Of a DNA stretch of 26,235 nucleotides, positions 978-24,077 are shown one piece after another; position 1 is the first letter of the stretch, and every line of letters starts with the position of its first letter. The notes under the pieces are model-generated. The model saw only the letters and a program-made list of their open reading frames with translations. It ran no database searches and had not been told where the DNA came from. The DNA is from Parachlamydiaceae bacterium. GTDB lineage: Bacteria; Chlamydiota; Chlamydiia; Chlamydiales; Parachlamydiaceae. Location of the stretch: assembly GCA_003164155.1 (NCBI GenBank), contig PLSG01000414.1, positions 1 through 26,235 of the forward strand. Direction: 5' to 3'. A program made the position numbers and the translations under genes.

Positions 978-1020
978 ATAAGTTTAGTTGATTTCATTAT
1001 ATCACAGGAGGTATGATCCT

Positions 1021-5106: not shown

Positions 5107-5240
5107 AGGAGACCTATCTGTTTAGATGATAATCAAAGTGATTTGTGCTTTAATTTGTCATGGTTGATGATGTTGAGGCGAACTTTAGTGATACCAGATC
5201 CTGATGCTAATTTTACAAAAGCTGTGTTGACTGGAAGCTG
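5045..5240 (-). repeat. Copy A (functional) of the traD 3' end/lipoprotein leader repeat
   Basis: Reference copy for the repeats at 3513-3701 and 4171-4283. Confidence 0.95.
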
Positions 5241-6821
5241 GAGTATTTGCGTGGGTGACACAATGGGCTTGCTTTTTTTCTGCATAGACAGAGATACACC
5301 ATCGCGAGTTTCGTGGGCTCCGTAGGATATCCCCTCTTGTCTTTCGGTAATCTCTCGTTCTCCAAAAGCTCGGGAGATCCTGTCCGCGATAAGAGGATCC
5401 TCTTCCTGGAAAACAATTTTGGTGGCTGTATTGGCCGTGATGACTTGAGAAACTTCACGTCCATAGATTTCATCTAACTGGGCGGGGGTTTGCAATACCA
5501 AGACTCCACAGCCACCATATTTTCTTCCTTCGGTTAACAAGCTTTCCAAATCCTTCACGCGTTGCAGCGTAGGGAGCTCATCGATGATAAACCAGATGCG
5601 TCTATCAAGATTGGGTTTAAGAGCAAGCAATCCTCTTATGGAAGCTGAAATCCAAGCGGCCATAAGGGGGCGCAAAATTGTTCTTTGCTTAGAGACGCTT
5701 TGGATGAACAGCCAGGAGTCATCATCTCTTTCTAACCATTCACGGATAGAAAATGGCGTAGAGGTGTCTTCTAATGCCCTTAGTGAGGATAAAAAGGTGG
5801 AGGATACAGAACGGATTGAACTGGCGGTTTTTTCTGAAGATAGATCCATATGTGCAGCTGCGGGCGTTCCAGCCATGAGCTTACACAAATTGGCCAGGGA
5901 CTCGTATTGTAGCCACTGGACTATATCTGAAGTTTTCCGCGTGTCTGCGAATTTTTCCAACAGCGTAGAAAAAACGGTCTTGCTCGCATCCCTCCAATAG
6001 CTGTCGTGATCGCTGTTGCTATGAGGGATAAAGGACTCGGCAATATCGGCATAATCAAAAGGGGTGTCTCCTTCTGCCCAAGGATTCCATTGGGCGGATC
6101 GCTTGTCAAACGGATTGAGTATGATGTCTTTATCTGGGCGATAATATTTTTCTACAAATATGCCGCAGGTATCTATGATGATTGTTTTTTGCTTCTGATC
6201 GCGGATTTGCACAAGCAAGTGGTGCAAGCAGTTCGTCTTTCCGCTACCTGTTCCGCCTGTGACCATCATATGGCGGGTTTCTGTGCCTTTCACTAAAGGC
6301 AAGGTTCCAATGAGAAAATTGGATGCTTTCTTAGTAAATTTTAAGCGCCATGCGAGCCATCTCGGAGATGAGATTTTCAAGCCAGATATGTGTTTTTCTG
6401 TTTTTGCAGAAGTGCCCTTTAATAGGAAAAAGGCAAGAATGGCTACAAAACATACGCTTGAGGCGATGATTGACTTCAATGCGTTTGAGTAGGCTTCATA
6501 CGCAAGCTTAATAACTATGGGCTGAGTTAGCTTTTTCACGTACTCTAGGGGAAGTTTTGGGCTATAGCTGTAATTTGCTTTGGAGATCTGAGACAGAAAT
6601 TTTCCATCCACTTCGAGATCCGTGAATGCCCCTGCATAGAACCAAGCTTTAAGATAATACCAAGTAGCTGAATAGGCTACTCTAGGAACACGGGTCATGA
6701 AATAGGTAAACGTACCCAGTCCGAAAAGGAGAGAGCAAAAAATAGCTACTCTAAGCACTTGTCGCAGCATGCGCAAACGATGCGAAATTATTTGTCCGCC
6801 TTCAGTTAATGTGTGTGTCAC
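5133..6821 (-). CDS. traD: Type IV coupling protein TraD
   Basis: Two N-terminal TM segments, Walker A GGTGSGKT, Walker B WFIIDELPTL, and LLTEGRKYGGC..L.LQ. GTG start with AGGAG upstream. Confidence 0.95.
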   Translation of the reverse strand: MTHTLTEGGQIISHRLRMLRQVLRVAIFCSLLFGLGTFTYFMTRVPRVAYSATWYYLKAWFYAGAFTDLEVDGKFLSQISKANYSYSPKLPLEYVKKLTQPIVIKLAYEAYSNALKSIIASSVCFVAILAFFLLKGTSAKTEKHISGLKISSPRWLAWRLKFTKKASNFLIGTLPLVKGTETRHMMVTGGTGSGKTNCLHHLLVQIRDQKQKTIIIDTCGIFVEKYYRPDKDIILNPFDKRSAQWNPWAEGDTPFDYADIAESFIPHSNSDHDSYWRDASKTVFSTLLEKFADTRKTSDIVQWLQYESLANLCKLMAGTPAAAHMDLSSEKTASSIRSVSSTFLSSLRALEDTSTPFSIREWLERDDDSWLFIQSVSKQRTILRPLMAAWISASIRGLLALKPNLDRRIWFIIDELPTLQRVKDLESLLTEGRKYGGCGVLVLQTPAQLDEIYGREVSQVITANTATKIVFQEEDPLIADRISRAFGEREITERQEGISYGAHETRDGVSLSMQKKSKPIVSPTQILQLPVNTAFVKLASGSGITKVRLNIINHDKLKHKSL

Positions 6822-6843
6822 TTTTATCTCCTAAGATGATTTC

Positions 6844-9660: not shown

Positions 9661-10315
9661 TCTTGAGCTGTGCCTCCATATATTTGAAAAGCTCTAGGAT
9701 GTATGCTTTTTCTTCTGGTTGAATAAGGCGCCTATAAACGCGATATTGATATGTGCGGATCTTTCCCCCACCGAAATCCAAGATCCAGCAAATCGCATGC
9801 TTTTGATAATGGTTAGCCTGGTATATGACAGGCCCTGGATTGTTCTCGTCAGAGAGCTCTTGTTGACAGAGAAAAGTTTCATAGCAAATCGTATTTTCAT
9901 CGTTGGGAATCATTAGCAAAGGACATGTGTATTTTACTTTTTTGAGCTTCTCGCTCCCATGCGTAGTTACTGTTGCAGTCAATTTTTCAGCCTTTGATTT
10001 GGCAATCGAAAATAGGCTGCTTCCTGTATTTTGGGTTTTTTTGTTGTCTTTGAATCTCGAAAGAGCAAAACTGTGTTCTGGATTATTCTTATTTTCATGC
10101 TCAGGACTATAGGCACATAAGATTTCGCCCTCGTTGTCTTCTACAGGGACTAGGGTTCTTTTCCATTTTTGATCCGGTGTATCAAGGGCTTTTTGGATAA
10201 TTGCATCAATTTGGTTGTTTTGTTTGCCATAGGTCACGAACATATCAAAAAAGGCTTCCGTTCTGGATGTGACTGCTAAAAATAAAAATCCAATGATTAG
10301 GCATAGGTTTTTCAT
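9647..10315 (-). CDS. Secreted hypothetical protein between traH and traG
   Basis: Signal-peptide-like MKNLCLIIGFLFLAVTSRTEA. GAGGAG lies 7 nt upstream of ATG 10315 (track start 10330). The 3' end overlaps the traG start. Confidence 0.8.
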   Translation of the reverse strand: MKNLCLIIGFLFLAVTSRTEAFFDMFVTYGKQNNQIDAIIQKALDTPDQKWKRTLVPVEDNEGEILCAYSPEHENKNNPEHSFALSRFKDNKKTQNTGSSLFSIAKSKAEKLTATVTTHGSEKLKKVKYTCPLLMIPNDENTICYETFLCQQELSDENNPGPVIYQANHYQKHAICWILDFGGGKIRTYQYRVYRRLIQPEEKAYILELFKYMEAQLKNVDV

Positions 10316-10326
10316 GTGATTTCTCC

Positions 10327-11682
10327 TCAATCAATTAAAATTTGTGAGTTGATTTGCTTTTCTAAAATCTGCATTTTCTCAATTAACCGCATCTCTAAAT
10401 CCAAAGCCTTTTGTGTGCGGGATTCATATCCTTGTACCAGGGAACGAACCCTCTCCAAGCTTTTCATATATGCATCAGTTTCTGTGGAGTAAGCGCTAGA
10501 AAGTCTAAGCTGCATGCATCCTTGCATAGCAGTTTCTATGGCTTCGGCAATGACTTGTGCAAGCACGTCCCAAGCGACAATATCAGCTATGCTTTGGAAG
10601 TCAAATGGACAGGGTTTGCCTTTGCGATATGCGGTTATCACATTGACGAATTTGTATAAGGGCAATCTGGTAGTGGCTAATAGCCCTTTCTCTTCATCGT
10701 TGAGAGGTTCATCGTGAATGGCTTTATTCTGCATGCTTACAAGCGTTTTGCGAATTCGTGCAAACCAGCAATTTTCGGACGTTAAAATTTCATCTTTTTC
10801 CAAAACGGTTAGGCATTGCTCGGAATCTTTGCAGACGTACTTAACGATTTCTCCGCCTTCGATAATGCGTTGTAAAAAATCGCTGTTTTCTGCTTTTGAT
10901 GGATAGTGGCGTGGCGCGCCTTCTTTTTCGGCAACTACAACAGTTCCTAAAAGGGTCATGTACATTTCCGCTAAATCCTTGTTTTGATTCCCTTGAAACA
11001 AGGGATGAAGGTGCAAGACTTTCCATGTGAGGTTATATTCTCCGCTGAGTGGCAAAAATTGCTTAACTGAATCTCGCGTTCTATTATCTTGTATAGTCCC
11101 TCCACATTTATGACGCGCTTCTATATGGTCTTTAAAAATTTGATTGGTCGTTCCTATTGATTGACAAATGTGCTGGCTGGCCATCTGGTTGGCTGGCCAG
11201 ATAGAACCGATGAGTCCAGCTGCTGTTTCACAGCTATTGATGCCCAGGGCATTCATAGTGTTCGCCCAGCTTTGCATTTGCCGCATGGTATTTGCAATTT
11301 GAGGAGAGACCGTTTCTAAGCCCAACATAAATGCATAACCTGTGGCGTTAGAGGCTACAGCCTTCATCGTTTCTACAATTTGCTTGCCGCTGATGAAAGA
11401 AAATCCGCCGGTATAAATGTCTATGCCGCCACAGCCCGCTTGGATATTGGGAAGATGCGCATTAACAAAACGCGTGGTTTTAATGGGAGAGCGGACAACC
11501 ATACCACCACCTCCGCTATAATATCCGGCCGCTTGGCTTTTATAGAGCAAATCGCCTTGCGAGACATGTACGTCAGCTCCTGTTGCCTTAAAAAGGCGTT
11601 CTGGCACCGTATACACCTTATCGCCAGCGGAAATATAATCAGAGAGGAGGATGCAGAAGCATACAAAACAAATCCTTACCAT
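10327..11682 (-). CDS. traH: Pilus assembly protein TraH
   Basis: Signature AGCGGIDIYTGGFSFI, FMLGLETVSPQI and NSCETA. Confidence 0.95.
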   Translation of the reverse strand: MVRICFVCFCILLSDYISAGDKVYTVPERLFKATGADVHVSQGDLLYKSQAAGYYSGGGGMVVRSPIKTTRFVNAHLPNIQAGCGGIDIYTGGFSFISGKQIVETMKAVASNATGYAFMLGLETVSPQIANTMRQMQSWANTMNALGINSCETAAGLIGSIWPANQMASQHICQSIGTTNQIFKDHIEARHKCGGTIQDNRTRDSVKQFLPLSGEYNLTWKVLHLHPLFQGNQNKDLAEMYMTLLGTVVVAEKEGAPRHYPSKAENSDFLQRIIEGGEIVKYVCKDSEQCLTVLEKDEILTSENCWFARIRKTLVSMQNKAIHDEPLNDEEKGLLATTRLPLYKFVNVITAYRKGKPCPFDFQSIADIVAWDVLAQVIAEAIETAMQGCMQLRLSSAYSTETDAYMKSLERVRSLVQGYESRTQKALDLEMRLIEKMQILEKQINSQILID

Positions 11683-12431
11683 GAATCCTTCTCCTGAAAT
11701 TGTAGGATGACGTTGTCCTCGATCTGGCTGATCGTCTCCATGCCAAACGCCAGAGGCGTGGCTTTTCTTGTCGTATGATTGACAGCAAAAAGAGCTGGGA
11801 AAGTGTTTAGCTCCATTTCATGCGCTATCTCTGTGTCAGCTATTGACTGAGGGAATTCGCGCAATATTATGCCATCGATTGAAATCGGTTGAACATCCCA
11901 GTCATAGTCCAATGAAAACTGTTTGACAACTGTTCCAAAGGCCTGAGAAAAGGGGTGCCTTCCTTCGTAGATGAATAGCAAGGAGGAGCTTTTGGCCAAT
12001 TTGTTAATCAGCTTTTTGCGATTTTCATAGTCGAAAGCTTTTTTTACTTGGGCCCCATATTGGGTTGTAGGGGAAAGTTCTGCTAGTTCGGGATGCTCTA
12101 AAATCACCCTTTGCCAGGTATAGGCAAAATTTTTAGCTTGATCTACCCACTTCTTCTGCATGCTTATATAGGCCACGATATTTTCATCAGAGGGTTCTAA
12201 AATAGCTTTTGATAAAGAGCGTTCAAGGTCCTCTTTGGCAATAGCCAGGACTACCTTGGGGTCTTTGGAAATTTCTAACTTTGGTTCTTTGGGTTTTTGA
12301 GGTTCCAGGAAATCATGGTACCATGCCCATCCTTCACCGCATCGATCCTTCCAAGGTAGCGGTTGGCTAGCCATCACCATAGCTTTGCTGGAAAGCATCA
12401 AGAAAAATGAAAATATCCTAAAAGAATGCAT
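11676..12431 (-). CDS. traF: Pilus assembly protein TraF (thioredoxin-like, no CxxC)
   Basis: GWAWY motif, LERSLSKAILEPS..NIVAY, V.PISIDG and PALFAV; lies between traN and traH. Confidence 0.92.
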   Translation of the reverse strand: MHSFRIFSFFLMLSSKAMVMASQPLPWKDRCGEGWAWYHDFLEPQKPKEPKLEISKDPKVVLAIAKEDLERSLSKAILEPSDENIVAYISMQKKWVDQAKNFAYTWQRVILEHPELAELSPTTQYGAQVKKAFDYENRKKLINKLAKSSSLLFIYEGRHPFSQAFGTVVKQFSLDYDWDVQPISIDGIILREFPQSIADTEIAHEMELNTFPALFAVNHTTRKATPLAFGMETISQIEDNVILQFQEKDSW

Positions 12432-14047
12432 CAGGAATTTTCCTCCAAACGCATTTTGAGGCGCTCTTCAATTTTCTTGATCTTTTCACTGCTATTGACA
12501 TGCGGGGGTAGATCAAAAGCCTCTGTGAGATTGAGCGTGGAAAAATCTAATTTTTTGATTTCTTTTTGTGTTAAACCTCGGCAGTCGGGGGTTTCAGCGC
12601 TTCCCCAATCTATTCCCAGCTGTTTTCTGGCTTCCTCTTGAAAAATGCGCGCGAGCTTGGTAGGAAATACACAAAAAACATGGTCGCTGTGACTGGTCCA
12701 CAGATCTAGAAATTTTTCTTTTTTAACTCCCAGGTAATGGCTAAGACCTTTTTTCTGACTTTCCATTAAAACTATTTCATCTGCGGTGCATTTGCTGAAT
12801 TTAAGTTTTGTCATTAGCCCATCCATCTCAAAGCAGCAGTCATACATCACATCGTTGACAATGCTTTTGCCGCATTTCTGGGTGTTTCCTTTAAATAACT
12901 GCACATGCCTCACATCTGGGGCTTGCGAGCCTTGGAGTTCTTTTTTCATTTCGTCAAACACTGCCAATTTTGTGGTGACATCAGGGAGCTGTTTATTTGG
13001 TTGATAGGAAGTTGTTTCCCATAGCTTTGGATCAGCTCCATATGCATCCTTCAATTCTCCCGCAGCTTGTGGACTGCGCGTGATGCATTGGAATACTTTC
13101 TCCCAGGCCACGCATTGCTTCTTGTGTTCCTGTATACATATTTCTTGTGTCAATATGCAATGTTTTTCTTTAAGAAAATCACAAGCGATTTGGTGTTGAT
13201 ATCGACACTTCATATTGTACGACTTGATCCAAAAGGGACGTTTGACTTTTCGCCCTTCGATGAGCCGCGTTTCCTTTTTTCCATTTTCTATGGACACCAG
13301 AGTGCAATCAATATTGTCGAGCAGTTCTTTGTTTTCCATGTGCCAAACATCCAGCTCTTCCCATTTTTCTTGTGAAATTACTCTTTCTTCCTCTACAAAG
13401 ACATTGCAAGGCTCAGCATCTTCTACGTGTGTCCAATCGCTAATGATAAAATCTCTATGCCACATCCCTTTTTCTTTGATGGACACTTTAAAGCTTTTGA
13501 TGGTGGGATCAGCTGCAAAAGCGCGTTCTTTGGTGGCCTTATCATCCTTTGGATGCGAACTTTTTTCTTCTTTGTGATGCCCGCGGCAGATTTTGACCTT
13601 TTTTTTATTCTCTGGTGTATATTTAACTTCCACAGATAGCACGTTATGCAGAATCACAGAGGATAACGCATTTTTAAAGAGGCATTTTTCAGTAGTGCTG
13701 TGCTCCTCTTGCTTATTTGCAGGAGGTGTTTTGTTAGTTTCCAAGATTTTGTCGCTGTGAGACACCAAGGCAGTTATCTCAGGATCCACGTTTGACGCTA
13801 AATCATCAAAGCTTTGATAAGCATTCGTCAATACATCGGTATGTGCTTTTTTTTCGTCAAATTTTTGCCCACGCAAAGCTTCAGGGGTAATGGCTTGTAC
13901 CTCTTGTGGGGATAGTTTAAAGCTTGAGGTGGCGCTTTTACCTAACGATTGGCCCTGTTTTAGGTATCCTTTTTGGCTTTCATTAGCGCAAAGGGGATGT
14001 GCCATCAATAGAGCAGCAACACAGGCTTGACAGCATCTAAACAGCAT
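12431..14047 (-). CDS. traN: Mating-pair stabilisation protein TraN
   Basis: Cys-rich, with C-terminal LFKG...CGK...DCC and FCVFPTKLARIFQEEARKQLGIDWGSAETPDCRGLT. An alternative start at 14005 would remove the signal peptide. Confidence 0.93.
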   Translation of the reverse strand: MLFRCCQACVAALLMAHPLCANESQKGYLKQGQSLGKSATSSFKLSPQEVQAITPEALRGQKFDEKKAHTDVLTNAYQSFDDLASNVDPEITALVSHSDKILETNKTPPANKQEEHSTTEKCLFKNALSSVILHNVLSVEVKYTPENKKKVKICRGHHKEEKSSHPKDDKATKERAFAADPTIKSFKVSIKEKGMWHRDFIISDWTHVEDAEPCNVFVEEERVISQEKWEELDVWHMENKELLDNIDCTLVSIENGKKETRLIEGRKVKRPFWIKSYNMKCRYQHQIACDFLKEKHCILTQEICIQEHKKQCVAWEKVFQCITRSPQAAGELKDAYGADPKLWETTSYQPNKQLPDVTTKLAVFDEMKKELQGSQAPDVRHVQLFKGNTQKCGKSIVNDVMYDCCFEMDGLMTKLKFSKCTADEIVLMESQKKGLSHYLGVKKEKFLDLWTSHSDHVFCVFPTKLARIFQEEARKQLGIDWGSAETPDCRGLTQKEIKKLDFSTLNLTEAFDLPPHVNSSEKIKKIEERLKMRLEENS

Positions 14048-14982
14048 TGTTTTTTAACCCACAGTAAATAGACAAAATCATCATCTCCTCCTCCTGGATA
14101 CGTTTTACCTGTGCCCCATAGCATGTCGCTTTTTCCAAGTGCATGGCAAGCCCCGCTGGTTTGCGGAATCGGCTTTACAATCTGCGTTTTGTATAGGCTT
14201 TTTTTTATAATGGGCATGATGCGCGGTTCGCAAAAATCGGTGTCTTCGTAGCCCTTCACAATCCCCATTCGATGCAGCTTGGCCAGGCAGCGATGTATAA
14301 GCAACGAGCTTGCTTGTAAGGGGCCGACTGTGTGCGATATAGTCCCTCCGAATGGATAGAGAGATCCTTGACATCCTCCGCACCAAAAAAGCTTGTCAAT
14401 TGGCTTATCCAAAGAGGCGCTTGTGCAATCAGCGATGCAGGCCAACTGAGCCAATGGGTTGCCAAACAAAATGGCTTCAGGACTGAAAATTTGCTGGAGG
14501 TCATCGGCCCCCCACAGCGGATCGAATTCGGACATGTAAGCCACATCGATCTCGCCTCCTTCAATGCATGTGAAGTCCGTGAGAATCCCCAAGATGGCTA
14601 ATATAGGGAAGACATAATAGTGCACATGGTAAAAGCTGGTAATGGACTGCGTTTCTTCAATGATCCCGACAGATCCTCGATTTTTAACACTTTCAGATCC
14701 GAGTTTTATGCCCCCTAGGCCGACTAACTTATAAGCATGCCTGGTCACATCGATCATGCGGGCGGGTTCCCAAAAGGTGATGGGCACTCCAACCTTGGGC
14801 GGAACGCCTGCGCATATGCAGATTGGGGTATGGTAGTGTGCAAAATCCTTTTCCTTGGGGGTAATGTTAATCCCTCCCAAAGTAATGGGAAAAATACACT
14901 CCCAGCATACATCTGTGATAGGATTAATCATGGAGGCGTGGACTTTAACAAAAGCAAAAATCAAGCCTAGAAAATATCTCAA
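14005..14982 (-). CDS. traU: TraU
   Basis: NPITDVCWECIFPITLGG, FWEPARMIDV, YMSEFDPLW, LFWCGGCQGSLYP and C-terminal KKQCC. TTG start overlaps the trbC stop. Confidence 0.95.
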   Translation of the reverse strand: MRYFLGLIFAFVKVHASMINPITDVCWECIFPITLGGINITPKEKDFAHYHTPICICAGVPPKVGVPITFWEPARMIDVTRHAYKLVGLGGIKLGSESVKNRGSVGIIEETQSITSFYHVHYYVFPILAILGILTDFTCIEGGEIDVAYMSEFDPLWGADDLQQIFSPEAILFGNPLAQLACIADCTSASLDKPIDKLFWCGGCQGSLYPFGGTISHTVGPLQASSLLIHRCLAKLHRMGIVKGYEDTDFCEPRIMPIIKKSLYKTQIVKPIPQTSGACHALGKSDMLWGTGKTYPGGGDDDFVYLLWVKKQCCLDAVKPVLLLY

Positions 14983-15545
14983 AATCTTTTCCTCAATGTT
15001 TTAGCCATTGCGGTTTCCCCCTGTGAAGCCATTTTTTCTAAAGCAAACTCTAGGGAGACATTTCCCTTTAGCTTATCAAAAAGATCTCCTTCGCTAACGA
15101 CAAAACTGGGTACGGCACTTATTTGAAAGCGCGTAAATAGGCGTGGGTCTATTTGGACAGTGGCCTGCATGCCTTTTTTTCTAAGCGCGTGGAGTTTTTC
15201 GGCCAACTGGTGAAAGCTATTTTCAGGTAGTCCACGCAATACAAAAACACCTGCGGATTTTTCGAGCTCTTTTGACAAAGTCAGCCATGCTTCATCAGGC
15301 AAGCCAAAGCTAACAAACACGTAAAGAGATGTCTGAGGATCTGCAGAAAAGCTTTCAGAAAAAACACATTTTTTCTTAAGGAGATCTTCCGCCAAAAGCT
15401 TGCCGCTGTCATAGAAATCGCCATACTCCACTTTAAGCTCTGCAATTTTTTGTCTTAACAGGTCTTTAGCTTGTAAGGCATCGGCAGAGTGGTCCACAGC
15501 CAAAAGCGAAAAGGGAAAAAGTAGCAAGCAGATGATTAAGAGCAT
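14979..15545 (-). CDS. trbC: F-type pilin assembly protein TrbC
   Basis: LYVFVSFGLP, FVLRGLP and IDPRLFTRFQISAVPSFV. Confidence 0.92.
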   Translation of the reverse strand: MLLIICLLLFPFSLLAVDHSADALQAKDLLRQKIAELKVEYGDFYDSGKLLAEDLLKKKCVFSESFSADPQTSLYVFVSFGLPDEAWLTLSKELEKSAGVFVLRGLPENSFHQLAEKLHALRKKGMQATVQIDPRLFTRFQISAVPSFVVSEGDLFDKLKGNVSLEFALEKMASQGETAMAKTLRKRF

Positions 15546-16120
15546 GGAATTTCCTCTACCTTGAGTTTGTCTTGTGCTTGCGATACTTTAGCCGGCAAAG
15601 CTCGAATGCCCAATTTTTTGGTTAGATAGCCTCCTTGATCAAAGTAGACGGGTCGATTTTCTGTTTTTTCAATGGCTAGGGGCGCACCGGACGTTAAAAT
15701 CCACTTTCCATTTTGGGTTTTTGCCCAGGCCAATTGCCCTGCGTCATTGGAGTCAAAAAAGAGTAAGTTTTCGTTGAGCTTGGCAGTGTCCAGCGGATTG
15801 ATTTTTGTGCCTTTGGGGATAATGATTTTGCCTGCTTGATCTGTGATATTTGTTTGCAGGCAAATCGTTGGATCAAAAGCAAAGATTCTGATTTTTAAAG
15901 CCTTTGGCAGGTTAATACCTAAGGGCTTTTCTATTTTTTCTATCAATACATTTTGGATCTCATGGCATTTTTGTGCATCCCAATGCGCGTTATTTAGGCG
16001 TTTTTGCAGCATTAAGAGCAGATCTTCTTCGGCAATCGAAAACGTATGACCATAGTTACCCACGTCTTTAGCTTCCAGGGTTGCCAAAAAAAAGAGTACA
16101 AGAGTTAGTAAATAGGGCAT
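15536..16120 (-). CDS. traW: TraW
   Basis: KDVGNYGHTFSIAEEDLL, FDPTI, GTKINPL, VYFDQGGYLTKKLGIRALPAKV. Confidence 0.93.
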   Translation of the reverse strand: MPYLLTLVLFFLATLEAKDVGNYGHTFSIAEEDLLLMLQKRLNNAHWDAQKCHEIQNVLIEKIEKPLGINLPKALKIRIFAFDPTICLQTNITDQAGKIIIPKGTKINPLDTAKLNENLLFFDSNDAGQLAWAKTQNGKWILTSGAPLAIEKTENRPVYFDQGGYLTKKLGIRALPAKVSQAQDKLKVEEIPCS

Positions 16121-16530
16121 AGCTGTTCCTTGATAGCTTTTAGGGGTACAAGTCCAAAAAGCGAATATCTGGAATCAAAACTGTCTGCGCTGCATCCTAA
16201 AGCAAAGAAATATCCTTCCGGAATGAATCCAGTGCAGGTATAGGGGATTTTGCTGGAAGCTCCCTTTTCGCCTTGTGGAATGCCATTGATATAGACCATG
16301 CCCTCAGATATACTGAAATAGTCTCCTGGAAGTCCTGCCACGACTTTGCAAAAGGTCGCTTTGCTTTGAGGCAGCTGAAAGGTGACAATTTTGGTTATCG
16401 CAATATCTTTTGCTGGTTTGGCCAAGTAAAGCCAGTGAGGCAAACTGTGACTGGAATTTACTTTCAAAGCATAGCCGAAAAAAAGCGCCGCTGTAACCAA
16501 GGCGTAGAGTCCACATATTGCCCACTTCAT
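16105..16530 (-). CDS. S26-family conjugative signal peptidase (TrhF/TrsF/TraF_P-like pilin maturase)
   Basis: N-terminal TM, catalytic Ser region NSSHSLP, Lys in FCKVVAGLPGD, and SFDSRY. Confidence 0.9.
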   Translation of the reverse strand: MKWAICGLYALVTAALFFGYALKVNSSHSLPHWLYLAKPAKDIAITKIVTFQLPQSKATFCKVVAGLPGDYFSISEGMVYINGIPQGEKGASSKIPYTCTGFIPEGYFFALGCSADSFDSRYSLFGLVPLKAIKEQLCPIY

Positions 16531-18986
16531 GCCTGAACCTCTTTGCTGAGGATCGTTTGAATGGCCTGAGAGACAGTCATGCCTGCGTTCGTCAAGTCTT
16601 TGATTTGGGCATATTCTTCGGCTTTAGTGCTGTATAGCTGTTTGGAGAATGGATCGAGCATCAACCTACCGATAGAAAAATTGCCATTGGGATCGTTAAT
16701 TAGAACTTCGCTGTATTCTCCTTGTTTTACACTGACGCTTTCTAGAGCTCTTAACATGGCGGGATTGCGCAATAGCTTGCCGCTATCGGCAAAGGTCTGA
16801 ATAGAAGTTTTCTTTTGCGAAAGAAAGCACCCCCAGTCGGAGTTTTCAAAAGCCGCTTTAGCTCCGGGAGTGGTAAAAAAATCTTCTAAGCTTTGCGTCC
16901 CCACTACTAAAGAGCCTTTGTATTTTCTTAAACGCCTGGCTAAGGTCTCAATGAATTCTCCGGTTTGAGGAGCTCTCAAAAGATCCCAAGCCTCATCGAT
17001 GCAGATATAGAAAGGTGTTTTTCGATCACCTAAAAAGGCCTGATTGGCAATGGTCATGATGACTAGCTGTAAAACGACAGACTGCAAATCTTTTTTGTTT
17101 TTTAGCTCTTCCAACTCAATGAGCACCAATTCGCGGTTGAAATTGACATTATTTTCCCCTTCAAAATACTTGGCATACACTCCATCCTTAGTATAGGGCT
17201 TTAACATAACCCCCAAAACTTGGGCTTTTTCGTTGGATTGGGCAAGTAAGGCGTTCGCTACTTCTGTAATGGTGGCATTTCGACCGTGCGTTTCCCAAAC
17301 CACTTGTAGGGCGGTTTCAATTAAGGCATTTTCATAATCTGTCGTTCCCTCTGAGGGAGAAGCCATACAGCTTACGATGGCTTTTAGAAAGCTAAAAGCC
17401 GTTTCTTTTTGATCTTGATCCTCTATGACGATCTTGGAAAAGGGATTAAGACAAATGTTAGACTCCTTATTAAACTCCAACTTTTGTCCGCCTACTAGAT
17501 CGCACATTTTTTCATAGCTGCGCCCTACGTCCAAAATATAAACGCGGGCTCCCGTTCTTAGGCCGTTGAGCAACAAATCCTGCATGAAGACCGATTTCCC
17601 CGATCCGCTGCGTCCCACTACAATGGTGTTATAATTTCCAGCCATATTGTCAAAGGGATTCCAGTTGAGCAGCTGCCCTCGCCTGCCAACCAATAGCATG
17701 CCCGGTGTGGGAGTTCCCGCCCACTCTCCTTGGATCGGAATGAATAGGGGGCATTCTGTAGTCAAAGTCGTTTTAAGTACCTGCATGCTGTTGAGGTCGT
17801 TGGCTACTTCTCCCCAAGCTGTAGGCAAGATCGACACCAGGTGCGCAAAATGCGTATAGCGATTTTCTGAAAGCTCAAATTGGTTGGCTTTAAAAACATT
17901 GCGCAATTCCTGCTCCGTTTCCCCTTTCTTCTCATTGGTAGACCAAAATCCGCAACTCAGTTGGGTTTTGACGAATTTGGCTCCTTGTTCAATTGAGCGG
18001 CGCACAAAATCGCATTCTCTAAGCTCCGCCGCTAATTCGGGAATCAAGCGAATGAGGTAATTGGATTTGCCCTGGTTTTCAATTAATCGCGAGCGATTGT
18101 TGAAGTTTTTTTCAGCTTTAGCCTGTTTGGGGAAATGCACGCCGTAGTGCAAAAAGAATGGCTGATTTATGCGATAGCTATCGCGCACCGAATCGCCTAT
18201 CAAATTTTGCATTCCCAGGGGATTCCACTGTGAAGGAACATCGACTACGCAATAGCTTTTAAAGACAGCCTCATCGTCAAAATACACTCCGTCTTTTTCT
18301 ATGTGCGTTTCGCCTCCGGTCATCAGCTGACTGGACAGATCATCTAAGATGTTGTGCCGGCGCCTGTGCAAGGCGGATGAGTTGGTGAAGTTCAGGGCAT
18401 AGCCTGCGGTTTCTAGAAATGTCTGGGGACCCATGCCGTGAGCTTTAGTTATCGTCTGCAATAGATGCAATAATTTATTGCGCATCTCGCTTAAGCGCTT
18501 TGCCTCTTCTGTGTAGCTGTCTTTGTAAGGCACGCTATAAGAAAGGATAAAGCGGAAATTGCGCACAGCAATAGAGCTCGATTGATAGTATTTTTTCCGA
18601 TGCTCTGCAATTTCTGCATATAGACCCTTACGATGACTTTTAGACCACCAGTTGATAAATGGATCTATTCTGTGATCGGCCAAAAGTAAAAATTGAATGG
18701 ATGCTCCTTCCCAAAACAAATCCTCAAAAATGCTGGCTAGCAGTTTTTGATGATGCTCATCCACCCCCACCAAGGGAATGGCTTCTATGGCAAATCCCAC
18801 ACTGGATTTATTCACAAAAAGGCCATGAGTCACATCATAACTCTCAAAAGGCAAAAATTTTGCCAATGCATCGACTTTAAAAAGGTCTTTAACATCGCCT
18901 AAGGCAGTATCATAGCTTCTTTTCTCACCACAAATGCGGGCAATCTTGCTACCTATCTTGCTGAGCATATTTAGCGATCTCCGCAT
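16527..18986 (-). CDS. traC: VirB4-like ATPase TraC
   Basis: Walker A GRSGSGKS, ILDVGRSY, CIDEAWDLL, ARRLRKYKGS and LDPFS..LYST. Confidence 0.96.
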   Translation of the reverse strand: MRRSLNMLSKIGSKIARICGEKRSYDTALGDVKDLFKVDALAKFLPFESYDVTHGLFVNKSSVGFAIEAIPLVGVDEHHQKLLASIFEDLFWEGASIQFLLLADHRIDPFINWWSKSHRKGLYAEIAEHRKKYYQSSSIAVRNFRFILSYSVPYKDSYTEEAKRLSEMRNKLLHLLQTITKAHGMGPQTFLETAGYALNFTNSSALHRRRHNILDDLSSQLMTGGETHIEKDGVYFDDEAVFKSYCVVDVPSQWNPLGMQNLIGDSVRDSYRINQPFFLHYGVHFPKQAKAEKNFNNRSRLIENQGKSNYLIRLIPELAAELRECDFVRRSIEQGAKFVKTQLSCGFWSTNEKKGETEQELRNVFKANQFELSENRYTHFAHLVSILPTAWGEVANDLNSMQVLKTTLTTECPLFIPIQGEWAGTPTPGMLLVGRRGQLLNWNPFDNMAGNYNTIVVGRSGSGKSVFMQDLLLNGLRTGARVYILDVGRSYEKMCDLVGGQKLEFNKESNICLNPFSKIVIEDQDQKETAFSFLKAIVSCMASPSEGTTDYENALIETALQVVWETHGRNATITEVANALLAQSNEKAQVLGVMLKPYTKDGVYAKYFEGENNVNFNRELVLIELEELKNKKDLQSVVLQLVIMTIANQAFLGDRKTPFYICIDEAWDLLRAPQTGEFIETLARRLRKYKGSLVVGTQSLEDFFTTPGAKAAFENSDWGCFLSQKKTSIQTFADSGKLLRNPAMLRALESVSVKQGEYSEVLINDPNGNFSIGRLMLDPFSKQLYSTKAEEYAQIKDLTNAGMTVSQAIQTILSKEVQA

Positions 18987-19297
18987 TCTAAATCCTCATT
19001 AAAATAGATGTAAGCCGGTTGTTCGCAGCCTTTAGGGGCTATCCAAATTCTTCTCTGAAATGGAGCAGAGGGTTCGATGGGCGGGGTGCACTTACACGTA
19101 GGATCTTTTTGCATATCGACAAGTTTGGGAACACATCCTAAAAACTGATCTTCCCCGCAAGGCGACTCGATGATCATTTTTTCTAACGTGGTCACAGGTG
19201 TGCAGGGGATTCCCTCACCTGGAGGACAATCAAAATTCGTTTTATACATACTGCAAGACGTTAGGAGAGCTATCAAGACAATTATATAAGGCATCAT
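18971..19297 (-). CDS. traV: Lipoprotein TraV
   Basis: Lipobox LLTS|C, FDCPPGEGIPC and RIWIAP; immediately upstream of traC. Confidence 0.88.
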   Translation of the reverse strand: MMPYIIVLIALLTSCSMYKTNFDCPPGEGIPCTPVTTLEKMIIESPCGEDQFLGCVPKLVDMQKDPTCKCTPPIEPSAPFQRRIWIAPKGCEQPAYIYFNEDLECGDR

Positions 19298-19878
19298 AGA
19301 CCTTTTTTAGCTGCATTTTGAACAAATTTGAAATCTGGTACATCCTTGGGAAATAGCTTCCCATTTATCTCGGCAGTGGGAACTGCCAAGACCTTTTCCT
19401 CTTGCTGTAAAAATACAAAGGCATCGTTAAAAGCAGATTGTCGTTTGAGAAACTCATGGTCATCTAACAGGGGTAGAGGTTTTTTAAAAATGCCCATAGC
19501 CGCTATCATGCATTGAGCCATAAGTTCTGGCTCATTAGGTATCGCCTCTTCAAACATCACTTCGAGGAATAATTGTTTTTGATGCGCATCCAGCTGGGCT
19601 AGGCATACCATAGCTTGGAGAGTGGGCAAATCGAGCGGTGTTGGGTGAAATTCGAATAAGATTTTTCCTGTATCGATATATTCCTTTTTGATGCGGGCAA
19701 AGTCGTTTTTAAATATCTTCAGGCAATGGGGGCATTGAAATGAAAAATACTCTACAAGTTTAATAGAAGCGTCCTCTTTGCCATAGCTTATGAGGTACTG
19801 CTTGCCTAGTTGTTCTACTGCTTGGACATTGCCGCATGTTGTCAAAACACACAGGAGTATATATTTCAATATGCGCAT
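19294..19878 (-). CDS. DsbA-like thiol-disulfide oxidoreductase
   Basis: LVEYFSFQCPHC active site, cis-Pro loop VPT..INGK and an N-terminal signal sequence. Confidence 0.88.
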   Translation of the reverse strand: MRILKYILLCVLTTCGNVQAVEQLGKQYLISYGKEDASIKLVEYFSFQCPHCLKIFKNDFARIKKEYIDTGKILFEFHPTPLDLPTLQAMVCLAQLDAHQKQLFLEVMFEEAIPNEPELMAQCMIAAMGIFKKPLPLLDDHEFLKRQSAFNDAFVFLQQEEKVLAVPTAEINGKLFPKDVPDFKFVQNAAKKGL

Positions 19879-21113
19879 TCTTCGCGTTTCCCTCCGTTGC
19901 GCACCTTCTCATGAGTGTGCAGGTCTCCTAAGTCAGCGCTATCTAAAAATGTGATATCCACGATCCTTCCTGAGGTGATTTGAATCACCGGTCGCAATTG
20001 CTCGGCTCTTTCGATAAAATAATCAGTCAAAGCATCCATTGCATTCGTCACCCCTTCGCTGCCTCCTGCAATGGCTATCTGGCCGGCAGTTTTCCCCCAT
20101 CCAGCCCCAACCTGTCCATTTCCTGCAACGCATCCCAATGGACCGGCAGGAGAAAGCTTAGCTAATGCGGCAGCCTCAAAAAAGTCACCAGCTCCAGCTA
20201 GAAAGCCTGTAATCAAGGCATTTTCAATTAATTGACAGCTTTTATCGACCACCGTTCCTCTAAGGCCATATTTGCCATCTTCCCCTGATACATATCCAGC
20301 CACTTGTGTTTCGATGAAACATCCATCCATGCGCACCTGTGTGAGCTTTTCTAAGCGAAAATAGACACGTTCGCTGGAAAGATCGCCGTAAACCGAAGCT
20401 GTGATGATTCCTCCCTTTAGCTTGGCACGCACTTCTTTTGGCAGACGTCCATCAGCAATAATCCTTAGCTTAACTGGAAGTGGATCAGTGCTGCCTTTAA
20501 CTCCACATGTCATGTCAACGCTGGAGACTAAAATGGCTTTTACACTTGTCCCTGCGGGGATAGTTCGATCAATATGATGTAAAGAGGATGGCTCTTGACA
20601 CGTTACATTTGCCAAAGGCATAAACATCTCTTGATTGGCTTGTAGAGGCTCTGCATGATGGAGGAATGGATCCCAGCCTTCTTTATGGTAGTTCTCTGAA
20701 ACAGTTTTTATTTCAGCTTGCAGAGTGTCCTTGATTGCATCTGAAGATGCAATAGCGGTTTGATTTTTTTTGAGTTCCATGCGCAAACTCTCAATTTCAT
20801 TGCGCAATAGGGAAATTTCATTCTGCGTTTCATTATGCCGCACTTCCTCATCTTTAACGCGTCCTACTACCAAATCTTGGATGTAGCTTACTTTGCCGTG
20901 TACAACTTCATTTTCCGATTGGACACGATCCATCCACATCTCTTTAGGATCAACAGTATCTAAAGGTAAGTTGGCGCTTGTAGAAAATGTCCTCTTTGGC
21001 TGATTTTCGAATTCCATCAGAAAAAAAATGGCTGCGATAGCTACAACAACGGCACATATTATTGCCAACAGCACCCATTTTTGTGATCTTCTTGTCTCGT
21101 CATTCACTCCCAT
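19866..21113 (-). CDS. traB: VirB10-like TraB
   Basis: IPAGTSVKAIL, GDLSSERVYFRLEKL, GYVSGEDGKYGLRG.VV and PVIQITSGR. Start moved to ATG 21113 (AAAGGGG upstream), which avoids overlap with traK. Confidence 0.93.
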   Translation of the reverse strand: MGVNDETRRSQKWVLLAIICAVVVAIAAIFFLMEFENQPKRTFSTSANLPLDTVDPKEMWMDRVQSENEVVHGKVSYIQDLVVGRVKDEEVRHNETQNEISLLRNEIESLRMELKKNQTAIASSDAIKDTLQAEIKTVSENYHKEGWDPFLHHAEPLQANQEMFMPLANVTCQEPSSLHHIDRTIPAGTSVKAILVSSVDMTCGVKGSTDPLPVKLRIIADGRLPKEVRAKLKGGIITASVYGDLSSERVYFRLEKLTQVRMDGCFIETQVAGYVSGEDGKYGLRGTVVDKSCQLIENALITGFLAGAGDFFEAAALAKLSPAGPLGCVAGNGQVGAGWGKTAGQIAIAGGSEGVTNAMDALTDYFIERAEQLRPVIQITSGRIVDITFLDSADLGDLHTHEKVRNGGKREECAY

Positions 21114-21130
21114 TTCCCCTTTATCAACTT

Positions 21131-21838
21131 TTAACGCATACAGCCAATGAGAACCAGTGCACACTCATCGGGTTTTAACTTATACCGATCAAGGAAAACC
21201 CAATCGCCATCTAGAACATTAACTTGGCATTCAGTCATGCGTTTAGCACATTTGGATATGTTCTGAAGGCGGTAAACGAAAATGATCTGTTGGTTATTAA
21301 CCAGTCGGTTAAGACGTTGAAATTTCAACTGATCTTTCACTTGTACATCTGGATCGTCCACAGAGACATAACCTTCAGGAAGAATTCCTCTGACATATCC
21401 TTCGACCAGTTCTTTGATTATATCTTGATCAACTGAGCTGGACAGTGGAGATTGAATGCTATCCATAACCATGCAATTCTCTACAATAGCTTCTGAAATA
21501 GGTTGCAGCATGATTATTTCACTAGAACTATCCTCGAAATGTAGTTCCAAGTCTTGGACTTTCCCTGAAGCTGTTACCAGGGATATCGTAGTGGGAGGAC
21601 ATAAGGCGCGCAATGCTTGTACAAAAATTTGTCCATTTCCCTCTTCAACTTCGATGGAGACTTCAGAATTTTTGAAAAATGCCTTTTTAATGCGATCTCC
21701 ATTAATTCCTAGGCGATTGTGGTGGCGTGAAGAAAGCTTCACTTGAATCACGGATAGAGGGTCCATCGGGATAAATTGAGTTGCATATGCATTAAAAAAG
21801 CTAGCCAACATGCACAACGCTAATAGATTTTTAATCAT
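21131..21838 (-). CDS. traK: TraK
   Basis: Signal peptide, LSSRHHNRLGI and TTISLVTASGKVQDL; lies between traE and traB with an ATGA overlap. Confidence 0.85.
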   Translation of the reverse strand: MIKNLLALCMLASFFNAYATQFIPMDPLSVIQVKLSSRHHNRLGINGDRIKKAFFKNSEVSIEVEEGNGQIFVQALRALCPPTTISLVTASGKVQDLELHFEDSSSEIIMLQPISEAIVENCMVMDSIQSPLSSSVDQDIIKELVEGYVRGILPEGYVSVDDPDVQVKDQLKFQRLNRLVNNQQIIFVYRLQNISKCAKRMTECQVNVLDGDWVFLDRYKLKPDECALVLIGCMR

Positions 21839-22389
21839 TTCGCCTCCACTCTTTCTATGGAAGATAGAAGTAATCTGCCGCCGAGGTTTTCAAATCCTAA
21901 CCGATACCTCTCAGATAACTTTGAAAGTACCTTATCACCTACAATAAGATTGCGATCCCCATCTATGGTTATGGTTTTATCCTGGGGGTTGACAAAGATC
22001 TTGCTCCTGAAAAACACATATGAGGCATTATCTTTCTTTAATTTTGCCACTTCTTCCGAAAGCTTCTGAGAGAGCACATGCGCAAAGGAAGGAGCTGTAT
22101 GGCGCATTAGGATAGTTAACTGCATATCCGCAGTAGCCGGAGCACGTGTTAGCAAGAGATCCCCTATAAAACATCCCATTTGTTCTAAATACGAGGGCGA
22201 TACATTGGCTCCTTCCACCCAAAATTCTTTTTCAATAAATGGAGGCATGATAATCACTCTCTCAGACTTCTGAAAAAGGAGAGAGCTCAATAAAATAGCT
22301 AATCCTAAAAGCAAAAATAGGACAGCTAAAAAGATATTGCGCTGCAAGGTGAGCGATCTCAACGTGTTATCTCTGATAAGTTCGTTCAT
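21835..22389 (-). CDS. traE: TraE
   Basis: One TM then ERVIIMPPF...FWV....VSPSYLEQM; ATGA overlaps with traL and traK. Confidence 0.92.
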   Translation of the reverse strand: MNELIRDNTLRSLTLQRNIFLAVLFLLLGLAILLSSLLFQKSERVIIMPPFIEKEFWVEGANVSPSYLEQMGCFIGDLLLTRAPATADMQLTILMRHTAPSFAHVLSQKLSEEVAKLKKDNASYVFFRSKIFVNPQDKTITIDGDRNLIVGDKVLSKLSERYRLGFENLGGRLLLSSIERVEAK

Positions 22390-22649
22390 CTTCTAAATCT
22401 CCTAGCATAAGAGGGAGGCAGCCGTTTCAAGCCATATCCTAAAGTCCAATAGAGATAACCATGCAAATGAATTGGGGCAAAGCGCTTACGGAATTTTGCA
22501 TATGCCCATCTGACTATAAAACCACTCAAAATAAGCACAAGATTGCCAAATAGAACGCCCAGCATCATGGGTGCAAACATGATGAATACATCATCGATGC
22601 GCCAAAACAACAAACGCGGGATATGATCTAAAGTTTTTAAGGTCTCCAT
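22386..22649 (-). CDS. traL: TraL
   Basis: LDHIPRLLFWRIDD, hydrophobic core, YLYW and LPPSYARRF. Confidence 0.9.
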   Translation of the reverse strand: METLKTLDHIPRLLFWRIDDVFIMFAPMMLGVLFGNLVLILSGFIVRWAYAKFRKRFAPIHLHGYLYWTLGYGLKRLPPSYARRFRR

Positions 22650-22652
22650 GTT

Positions 22653-22982
22653 TTACATCCCCGGCAGTACCGCTCCGAACACTGTATCGATGAAGTAAGG
22701 CACAATGGCCATCAAAAGCCCTATGCCTCCATACGTCATGATGGGACGATATGAAGCTGTGATACAGGTTGAGATAACCCCATATGCTATGCCCAGTACA
22801 CCAATTAATTTGGTGATAGGCCCGAAAACGATCTGCTTGATCTCTTGCGTTTTGCTATCTACAGCGAGGTTAAAAGATTCCCAAGTTTTCTCCACTTTTG
22901 CGTCTTTTTTAACAATTTCTGCTGCTGAAATCGCAAATGGTAAAGCCCAAAAGGTCAATAGCATAGTCAAAATCCACTTCAT
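22653..22982 (-). CDS. traA: Conjugative pilin precursor (TraA-like)
   Basis: 109 aa with signal peptide and two hydrophobic helices; first gene of the operon. AAGGAG lies upstream of ATG 22982 (track start 23030 is a TTG). Confidence 0.8.
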   Translation of the reverse strand: MKWILTMLLTFWALPFAISAAEIVKKDAKVEKTWESFNLAVDSKTQEIKQIVFGPITKLIGVLGIAYGVISTCITASYRPIMTYGGIGLLMAIVPYFIDTVFGAVLPGM

Positions 22983-23223
22983 ACAAATCTCCTTAAATTT
23001 TGAGAGAAATTCTTCTTTGCTTGATTCCAATATTTAAGCAATTAGCTAATCTGCCTAACTTTGGTTTTTTAAGATATGCGCCCAACATGAAGGAGCGCCT
23101 ATAGCCAAATAGGCTAGCGGCTCTGCTCCATCAGCATGCAATTGGAGATAGTGAGAATGAAAGGGGATAAGTTGATCACGACTTGGACATATGTCCACAA
23201 AAAATGAGGATTTCCGCATACTT

Positions 23224-23316
23224 TCACACTCCCTCCGCTGGCATTACCCAGATCAGGTTATTAGGGAATTATCTCAGCCAAGTAGCGACAATTCGCCGAC
23301 TTAGCACCCCTGGTGA
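23224..23316 (-). promoter_or_regulatory. TPP (thiamine pyrophosphate) riboswitch aptamer
   Basis: Minus strand: UCACCAGGGGUGCUAAGUCGGCGAAUUGUCGCUACUUGGCUGAGAUAAUUCCCUAAUAACCUGAUCUGGGUAAUGCCAGCGGAGGGAGUGUGA. It contains the THI-box motifs AGGGGUGC, GCUGAGA and ACCUGAUCUGGGUAAUGCCAGCG.AGGGA. Pairings: P3 GCUAAGU/ACUUGGC, P3a GGCGA/UCGCU, P4 CCU/AGG, P5 CUGG/CCAG. P1 is short. Confidence 0.93.
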
Positions 23317-23337
23317 CACAAGAAAATTTAAATATCT

Positions 23338-23368
23338 ATGATTTACATGATCCAAAAGCGCATGTCAA
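23338..23368 (-). promoter_or_regulatory. Candidate sigma70-type promoter for the riboswitch/tra transcript
   Basis: Perfect TTGACA at 23368-23363 on the minus strand, about 50 nt upstream of the aptamer. The -10 at 17-nt spacing (TAAATC) is poor. Confidence 0.4.
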
Positions 23369-23669
23369 TAAAAAAAGCAATCTGCATAGATTTTTTGGCA
23401 ACAATCAGGTGTAGCAATCAATCCATTCTAAGTTAGCCAAAAGCATATCATACACTTTTCAAGCGATCTGCTGAAACCTTGCTTACAACCAATGATTTAC
23501 AGAACGAGAAATGGCTCATACATGAATTAACGCTATCATAAATATGGTCTATATACGCTCCTAGATTTGGAACGGGTATCGACAGTCACACCCAATTAAA
23601 ATTTTCTTTTATTTCATCCCTGTTTGTGTTATAAAAGATTTGAAAAAACCATTCGCCAAAGGCAAAAAA

Positions 23670-24077
23670 ATGGATTTAGATATAGAAGTAATAAAAAAAA
23701 TTCAAAATAAGCAGTATGCTACATTCATCTCTTCTAACTTGTATGACAATCTGGAAAAGCACATACTAACAAAAAAGAAGCTTTCCAGAAGTGGATTGAC
23801 AAAGCAAAATTGGGTATCTGATGCTATCCACGAGTACTTGGAGCATGAAAAAAGTGAGGGGTCGCAAAGCTTGCAAGAGCGGCGCATCTCAATAAGAATA
23901 GATATTCTAACCTTGAGGAATTTGAAGGCCTGTGTAGAGAAAATGAAAAAATCTAATCCTAGCTATTCCTTAAAAAAATTGCTTGTGCATGCTATCGAAT
24001 CCAAACTAGAGCGCGAAAAGGATGAGGTAAAGAAAAAAATCGATGAATATCTTGAGACTTTAAAAAATAAGAACTGA
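23670..24077 (+). CDS. Tandem ribbon-helix-helix DNA-binding protein (TraY-like architecture)
   Basis: Two beta-alpha-alpha patterns: KQYATFISSNLYDNLEKHI...LTKQNWVSDAIHEYLEHE and RRISIRIDILTLRNLKACVEKM...YSLKKLLVHAIESKLERE. Divergent from traA. ATG 23670 preferred over TTG 23640. Confidence 0.7.
   Translation: MDLDIEVIKKIQNKQYATFISSNLYDNLEKHILTKKKLSRSGLTKQNWVSDAIHEYLEHEKSEGSQSLQERRISIRIDILTLRNLKACVEKMKKSNPSYSLKKLLVHAIESKLEREKDEVKKKIDEYLETLKNKN

Follow-up and report, generated by a model that had tools for sequence, protein, structure and literature searches.

Riboswitches nearly always precede genes of the pathway whose product they sense, and one locus of a Parachlamydiaceae genome departs from this rule in a way that raises a double question: how did an RNA aptamer for thiamine pyrophosphate (TPP) come to stand in front of a conjugation operon, and does it control that operon? 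The locus is found on contig PLSG01000414.1 (C97), whose 26,235 bases are the whole stretch of DNA analysed here (the window) and which belongs to a metagenome-assembled genome (MAG) of 589 contigs that is 70% complete. An earlier note on this DNA had proposed that conjugation is gated by thiamine. Comparison with related loci shows, at the level of sequence, that the 5' untranslated region of the first transfer gene, traA, has received, in sense orientation, the 5' portion of a thiM transcription unit from a chlamydia, approximately 310 nucleotides (nt) long (about 23338-23026). The inserted piece consists of leader, TPP aptamer and the first ~71 codons of thiM, and it is placed between the tra promoter and the ribosome site of traA; its carrier is one lineage of an F-type conjugative element of a peat or permafrost chlamydia.

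The aptamer was assigned to RF00059 by cmscan at 23212-23321 of the minus strand (65.2 bits, E 6e-11, where the gathering score is 54.3), with the model aligned over its full length (1-105) and the P1-to-P1 core at 23316-23224, precisely where the earlier note had seen a complete THI-box aptamer, and the match was recovered again in a search of the whole genome. In our family sample, which comprises 61 genomes of the same GTDB family with the source genome among them, 21 genomes carry aptamers above the cut-off, and the score of the window's copy is inside their range of 58-72.6 bits. Every upper-case consensus position of the THI-box core is matched, of the 33 positions that at least 90% of the other aptamers in the family have in common, 32 are retained, and the consensus fold, which was built by hand, is energetically feasible (-25.5 kcal/mol, compared with -29.3 kcal/mol for the minimum free energy (MFE) fold). 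The closest aptamers are those of the thiM type in the relatives G305 and G239 (84-85% identity), and P3a is missing in the thiM-type relatives as well as in the window. The suspicion had been voiced that the switch is decaying, as its P1 stem is short. The stem is indeed only four pairs long (UCAC/GUGA), but an identical P1 is found in three intact thiM riboswitches of relatives; the short stem is therefore characteristic of the family and does not point to decay. Judged by score, core conservation and fold, this is a genuine TPP aptamer and an average, healthy member of its family.

According to three independent methods, which agree with each other, the ~200 nt that follow the aptamer are the frameshifted and truncated start of thiM, the gene of hydroxyethylthiazole kinase. 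The remnant (23026-23227, minus strand) covers codons ~1-71, contains at least three frameshifts and ends 44 nt before the ATG of traA. When the 61 family genomes were searched at the DNA level with positions 22983-23640, the sole match extending 130 nt beyond the aptamer was that of G383 (70% over 226 nt, E 5e-15), where thiM (270 aa, Pfam HK E 3e-84), thiE and thiL directly follow the aptamer; the same order aptamer-thiM-thiE is seen in G305 and G239. The post-aptamer DNA alone, compared by nhmmer with 199 kb of fetched loci, matched only the thiM 5' ends of G305, G383 and G239, at collinear positions (E 2e-7 to 1.6e-6). Searching the leader by tblastn with the N-termini of ThiM proteins placed residues 6-36 at 23212-23120 (E 1.5e-6), residues 41-54 at 23108-23067 and residues 59-71 at 23058-23026, that is, three collinear pieces in three frames. 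Additionally, a ThiM profile run against 148,748 six-frame fragments of the genome ranked the aptamer-adjacent fragment second (aligned to ThiM 5-36), the first rank being taken by a paralogous carbohydrate-kinase domain. The mended 53-aa translation of the remnant (with X at the break) gave no match to Pfam HK (PF02110), and genome-wide tblastn with ThiM and ThiE found nothing, the remnant being seen only by DNA and profile searches with close relatives; an intact thiM or thiE was likewise not found in the assembled part of the genome. Since the remnant runs through three frames and ends near codon 71 of 270, it is to be regarded as a pseudogene fragment, identifiable via close relatives only. 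Thus the statement that no thiamine gene lies downstream of the aptamer, made in the earlier note, is true of intact genes only: behind the aptamer comes the thiM stub (23227 to ~23026), and then traA.

Two relic open reading frames (ORFs) are present in this part of the minus strand. ORF a (23114-23227, 37 codons) begins with a GTG in the 3' strand of P1, which is the ancestral position of the thiM start, and is collinear with ThiM 1-36. ORF b (P0001; 23055-23219, 54 codons) begins with an ATG 5 nt after P1, and its final third is in the old thiM frame; no Pfam family was found for it, and no further copy elsewhere in the genome.

Some further thiamine loci were observed along the way. The genome carries a second TPP aptamer (59.7 bits) on contig C314 (8370-8476; L002:1501-1607), about 280 nt upstream of a TenA-like ORF (L002:1889-3106) in which the TENA/THI-4 domain runs from residue 178 on, after a Ser/Pro-rich extension of ~190 aa. 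Most of the other family aptamers precede a transporter of the major facilitator superfamily type (~420 aa), and one precedes an NMT1/THI5-like protein. In two family genomes, G401 (L047) and G112 (L048), the TPP riboswitch stands before a protein with mitochondrial-carrier-like motifs; these carrier-like genes are candidate importers of thiamine or TPP in intracellular bacteria.

The DNA that surrounds the insert belongs to the conjugative element on both sides. The traA-like propilin gene (22653-22982, minus strand, 109 aa) lies, as had been described, on the strand of the aptamer and 242 nt after P1 (ATG at 22982). It has no Pfam hit and is situated directly upstream of traL and traE; in 25 related tra loci a homologue occupies the corresponding place (tblastn). 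Its Shine-Dalgarno sequence AAGGAG (22989-22994, minus strand) is 6 nt before the ATG, and a GGAGAT motif before traA is kept in relatives. Then follow 17 further F-type tra genes (5133-22649, minus strand; from Pfam and the ORF layout), overlapping or abutting each other as the earlier note had it, in the order traL, traE, traK, traB, a thioredoxin-type gene, an unnamed gene, traC, an S26 peptidase gene, an unnamed gene, trbC, traU, traN, traF, traH, an unnamed gene, traG and traD. The Pfam families TraL, TraE, TraK_N, TrbI (TraB), TraC_F_IV, TrbC_Ftype, TraU, TraN, TraF, TraH, TraG_N and TrwB/TraD are represented; F-specific assembly genes stand in their conserved order, as is required of an F-type conjugation operon, and all 18 tra genes are intact.

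On the other side of the aptamer, and divergent from traA, there is a gene for a 135-aa protein, putatively of tandem ribbon-helix-helix (RHH) type with TraY-like architecture (23670-24077, plus strand), which is conserved beside traA in relatives. Within the first sample, tblastn found homologues divergent from traA in seven tra loci (E 6e-11 to 4e-4), and the gene is present in all the closer relatives that were fetched via a TraE 64-69% identical; homologues are located at L070:2602-3009, L072:2715-3116, L074:478-873, L075:1594-2028, L076:1765-2160 and L077:1799-2209, and the chains in relatives measure 131-144 aa. Since the RHH-type gene is conserved beside traA, the interval between the two genes is internal to the element and is not its end or attachment site. 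This synteny agrees with the earlier view that the RHH gene belongs to the element and that the aptamer is not a mere relic of a host flank. The interval is 687 nt long in the window and 211-410 nt in relatives; the excess corresponds to the aptamer and the thiM stub, and therefore the block is a ~310-nt insertion in the element's own regulatory region.

As to the borders of the insert, similarity to the donor-type thiM leaders (L042, L044, L046) seems to begin ~20-25 nt upstream of P1 (23338-23322 in the window), close to the transcript start that is expected for the donor thiM genes from their putative promoters, and what was captured may thus be the 5' end of such a transcript. Flanking repeats were considered as scars of the insertion: a family of 15-nt direct repeats is not significant (p 0.16) and its traA-side copy is within thiM-derived sequence, a 17-nt inverted pair was also found, and the scar reading was rejected. 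The intergenic region between the RHH-type gene and traA may also contain an origin of transfer or operator sites.

The TTGACA that the earlier note had reported upstream of the aptamer was confirmed at 23368-23363 (minus strand), and it is the -35 hexamer of the only strong sigma-70/66-type promoter between the RHH-type gene and traA, being the single TTGAC[AG] in the 657-nt intergenic region and also the best candidate in a lenient promoter scan. A 17-nt spacer ending in TG leads to the -10 hexamer TAAATC (23340-23345, minus strand), which ends 23 nt before P1 and predicts a start near 23333. The traA promoter of five of the six closer relatives is built in the same manner (TTGAC(A/G), a spacer of 17-18 nt ending in TG plus one base, TAAAAN), with the -35 at -63 to -81 from the traA ATG, and the sixth has TTGAAT at -85. 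In the window the -35 is at -386, displaced by ~300-320 nt, which is the size of the insert. Because no other TTGACA promoter is present and because the layout is that of the relatives, we favour a native tra promoter. A search of the minus strand between 23360 and 22983 gave no terminator-like site. With the aptamer downstream of the only strong promoter, which would read through it towards traA whether native or imported, and with no terminator before traA, co-transcription of the two is likely.

Two other features of the leader RNA deserve mention. An intrinsic terminator/antiterminator platform was considered and rejected, as the GGAGG/CCUCC hairpin before a U-run has only -5.8 kcal/mol and a 20-nt loop and its competition with the aptamer would run opposite to what an OFF switch needs. 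Between 23331-23323 and 23001-22993 (minus-strand RNA) there is perfect complementarity over 9 nt, made up of A-U pairs alone, which encloses the entire insert and joins the RNA just 5' of P1 to bases that abut and overlap the traA Shine-Dalgarno sequence; the pairing is also part of the MFE fold and could be due to chance in AT-rich sequence.

How could a fragment in this position act on the tra genes? The donor-type thiM loci have no separate expression platform: GGAGGGAG, a Shine-Dalgarno-like sequence, is formed by the 3' strand of P4 and the junction to P1, a GTG is in the 3' strand of P1, and an ATG comes 6 nt later. With the ribosome site in P4 and the GTG in P1, both should become inaccessible once TPP is bound, and the result would be a translational OFF switch. 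This arrangement, which precedes the intact thiM of G305, G239 and G383, is retained in the window, with GGAGGGAG inside the aptamer at 23236-23229 (minus strand), the GTG at 23227 in P1 and the ATG at 23219, 5 nt after P1, so that on sequence grounds the layout for occlusion is in place. The leader behind it is C-rich and G-poor (23215-23099, minus strand), with a C/G ratio of 1.4-2.1 in 78-nt windows compared with 1.0 on the strand of the tra operon, a composition that resembles Rho utilization (rut) sites. In thiM of E. coli, Rho has been shown to terminate transcription within codons 20-34 as a consequence of TPP-dependent repression of translation (Bastet et al., 2017; PMC5499598), and the Rho-sensitive region is modular and works when it is moved to another gene (PMC5499598).

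By analogy, tra transcripts would begin near 23333 and pass through the aptamer, and the TPP-bound RNA would block translation of the relic ORFs, whose GGAGGGAG and start codons are inside or directly after the P4 and P1 strands. The untranslated C-rich RNA (~230 nt) would then offer Rho a place to load and to stop transcription upstream of traA or inside it. When TPP is low, translation of a relic ORF would protect the RNA and allow read-through into the tra genes; the module would be an OFF switch for conjugation at high TPP. Rho (Rho_RNA_bind) was found above cut-off in 12 of 12 relatives searched, and the tra operon is intact though the insert had time for at least three frameshifts, which supports such a function. 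The captured thiM leader may thus serve as a TPP-dependent, Rho-mediated attenuator of tra, a proposal which we make tentatively and to which we give somewhat less than an even chance; that thiamine has a real effect on tra is conceivable, its probability being placed rather below even too. The further step, namely that the element co-opted the riboswitch cassette (aptamer plus Rho-sensitive thiM start) as the leader of its transfer operon, with pilus formation and DNA transfer in an intracellular chlamydia off when TPP is plentiful and released on thiamine starvation, is doubtful: such an adaptive role is less likely than either a thiamine-dependent effect or an inert relic.

A number of findings weigh against regulation by the insert. 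No TPP aptamer was found near traA in ~37 distinct related tra loci, comprising the 20 closest tra loci (E up to 0.1) of a wider sample of 400 genomes of the phylum, seven loci with TraE 64-69% identical and 13 further ones; scans of metagenomes and genomes with TraE yielded just four additional loci. The insert is a singleton, found in this element alone among the loci examined. Furthermore, traA has its own strong ribosome site 230 nt away, and therefore no direct sequestration is to be expected. Rho was not found in this 70%-complete assembly. The promoter may have been imported with the thiM fragment instead of being native, since alignments with the thiM promoter of G383 (p 0.058) and with the tra promoter of L072 (p 0.078) are both not significant and favour neither origin. 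The lenient scan also gave weak alternatives further downstream, the best of them a promoter-like site (TAGGCA, 17 nt, AATATT) at 23057-23029, within the thiM-derived sequence. The peat metatranscriptome run X10 contains a 180-nt contig (depth 8) that exactly matches 23664-23843, the 5' part of the RHH-type gene, DNA carry-over being possible; this run has no match on the leader or traA, and no RNA run containing the leader was found. The earlier note had named two outcomes that would speak against thiamine-gated conjugation, a decayed thiamine gene in the 240 nt between aptamer and traA and the absence of the aptamer from related tra operons, and both were observed. Taken together, the decayed thiM and the absence of the aptamer from ~37 loci therefore point to a one-off capture of a thiM leader fragment, and the idea of a conserved, evolved system of thiamine-gated conjugation has to be abandoned. 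The earlier interpretation is thus supported in part: the TPP aptamer is true, it lies inside the element, and it is probably carried on the tra transcript.

The rival that survives best is an inert relic: the captured thiM leader fragment would have no thiamine-dependent effect on tra and would be kept because it is recent or harmless, TPP being bound without consequence 230 nt downstream, or the insert lowering tra constitutively via polarity. This comes close to an even chance and is about as likely as a real thiamine-dependent effect. It is favoured by the singleton status of the insert, and also by the organization of the leader, in which traA lacks a dedicated expression platform, no intrinsic terminator exists and the traA Shine-Dalgarno sequence is independent. 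One would argue that the good state of the aptamer beside a decayed gene betrays selection. Among the sites at which the three intact thiM loci agree, 9 of 77 in the aptamer (12%) and 42 of 119 in the remnant (35%; Fisher p 2e-4) are different in the window, and the changes in the aptamer concern 1 of 33 family-conserved core sites and 18 of 58 others (p 9e-4). However, these tests of relative decay were withdrawn as a sign of selection on the aptamer, as a control with the functional, distant thiM locus of G413 behaves alike: in its aptamer, 1 of 33 core sites and 22 of 58 others are changed, and the codon positions 1, 2 and 3 of thiM differ at 42, 35 and 59% of invariant sites in G413 and at 41, 22 and 48% in the window's remnant. 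Because G413 shows the same pattern, the substitutions are explained by a more distant functional thiM donor, which suits the relic explanation. No selection after the capture is evident, a further point against regulation, and the conserved core can reflect inherited constraint plus a recent capture. The sure damage after capture is the truncation and the frameshifting indels of the remnant, about four events in ~200 nt. With so few events we estimate the chance that the aptamer core escaped as modest, although by no means small; its undamaged state is therefore unsurprising, and there is no statistical case for or against selection.

On the other hand, several features do not suit an inert relic. 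The aptamer and the Shine-Dalgarno-like sequence have been preserved together with both start codons, and the relic ORFs run for 37 and 54 codons without interruption. In E. coli, the homologous part of thiM acts as a Rho-dependent attenuator that can be moved to another gene (PMC5499598), and the operon has stayed intact despite an insert in its leader.

Far less probable is that thiM was the gene into which the element integrated, or that the 5' region of this gene serves it for attachment, so that the aptamer would be chromosomal host flank or a copy of the target gene at the element's end. Such a history could be imagined from the shape of the fragment, which begins near the donor leader and ends within thiM like a replacement 5' end, and from the lack of an intact thiM or thiE in this assembly. 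But the frameshifted copy could not restore the target gene, and the RHH-type gene across the aptamer is the element's own, as it stands beside traA in relatives including L010 and L012, two tra loci that sit inside complete single-contig chromosomes. In a second assembly, a 68-kb contig that is 100% identical to the window across 14.4 kb runs on past the RHH-type gene with unrelated genes and an IS66 transposase. The attachment-site reading was thus rejected on synteny, the interval between the RHH-type gene and traA being internal to the element.

The least probable explanation, an artefact in the form of a chance THI-box match or of a chimeric contig joining a thiamine and a tra locus, might be suggested by the fragmentation of the MAG, but it can practically be dismissed: the covariance-model score is 11 bits above the curated cut-off, and the 68-kb contig of the second assembly is without differences, as are low-coverage unitigs from peat and permafrost metagenomes of independent studies, which match 23188-23338 and 23003-23153 with zero mismatches and span both ends of the aptamer-remnant block, with element DNA flanking the insert on both sides. 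Identical pieces of the locus are present in metagenomes from three separate studies.

Other parts of the element were inspected too. The AlphaFold model of the RHH-type protein (predicted local distance difference test score 71.7) has two strand-helix-helix units, the first with a strand at residues 14-21 and helices at 22-41 and 45-59, the second with a strand at 70-77 and helices at 79-95 and 101-134. Its Pfam matches of RHH type are sub-threshold only, a sequence search of the PDB gave nothing relevant, and the best Foldseek matches are chains of the F relaxosome, with E at least 0.26, which is not significant. Several genes without Pfam hits separate the RHH-type gene from the transposase of the IS66 family, which on the 68-kb contig is situated beyond the window's high end, ~5 kb past the RHH-type gene (L069:1315-2967). 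Downstream of traD, a gene at 988-1521 (plus strand) encodes a 177-aa protein with a SocA/Panacea antitoxin domain (E 7e-16) and adjoins an unannotated 149-aa ORF; the element may carry a toxin-antitoxin pair.

The locus is of interest whichever explanation of its function is correct. To our knowledge, the route by which riboswitches gain new genes is poorly documented, and here the origin of a capture can be read, because the aptamer is still followed by a stub of the gene it belonged to, related genomes contain donor-like loci, and sister elements show the site unoccupied. Our literature search found no paper linking a TPP riboswitch with conjugation. If the thiamine-dependent control were true, no earlier case of conjugation gated by a metabolite riboswitch would be known, and the locus would exemplify the natural transfer of a riboswitch module between unrelated operons. 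A working module would link horizontal gene transfer in chlamydia to a vitamin signal of the host cell, and it would mean that the unit of aptamer and early ORF, as defined in E. coli, is portable in nature. If the module is inert, the locus is a dated case of a riboswitch that outlived its gene and a caution that even an aptamer with a high score may be a relic when it stands in unusual surroundings.

The known system closest to the insert is the chlamydial thiM-thiE riboswitch of G305, G239 and G383, with which it shares an aptamer of 82-85% identity, the 4-bp P1, the Shine-Dalgarno sequence in the aptamer, the start codon in P1 and ~71 collinear codons. It differs in that its thiM breaks off near codon 71 and is frameshifted, there is no thiE, intact genes resume with traA and the tra operon, and the upstream DNA is probably the element's own and not that of the thiM promoters in the three genomes. 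Tandem strand-helix-helix units in one chain are the architecture of TraY of the F plasmid, and the tra leader of F has, as far as we know, no metabolite-sensing RNA. As in the PY/TraY region of F, a gene of putative tandem RHH type lies beside the tra promoter and traA is the first structural gene, whereas the RHH-type gene is divergent in the window and co-transcribed in F, and its likeness to F proteins by Foldseek (E at least 0.26) is not significant. Among the tra units described in chlamydiae is the F-like island of Protochlamydia amoebophila UWE25 (Greub et al., 2004; PMC548262). The operon studied here has the F-type gene set and order of the UWE25 island (traA, L, E, K, B ... C ... 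U, N, F, H, G, D) and a chlamydial host in common with it, whereas the related loci that we examined have no riboswitch or thiM fragment in the traA leader. By analogy with thiM of E. coli, the insert would form a translational OFF switch in which aptamer and thiM start act as a unit and the Rho target is within the first tens of codons; unlike E. coli, which uses a separate anti-Shine-Dalgarno helix, the window has its Shine-Dalgarno-like sequence within the aptamer, and its C-rich stretch is a compositional hint only. Compared with all these systems, the locus presents a known riboswitch class in a new context and is a clear example from nature of a mobile element that has captured a riboswitch.

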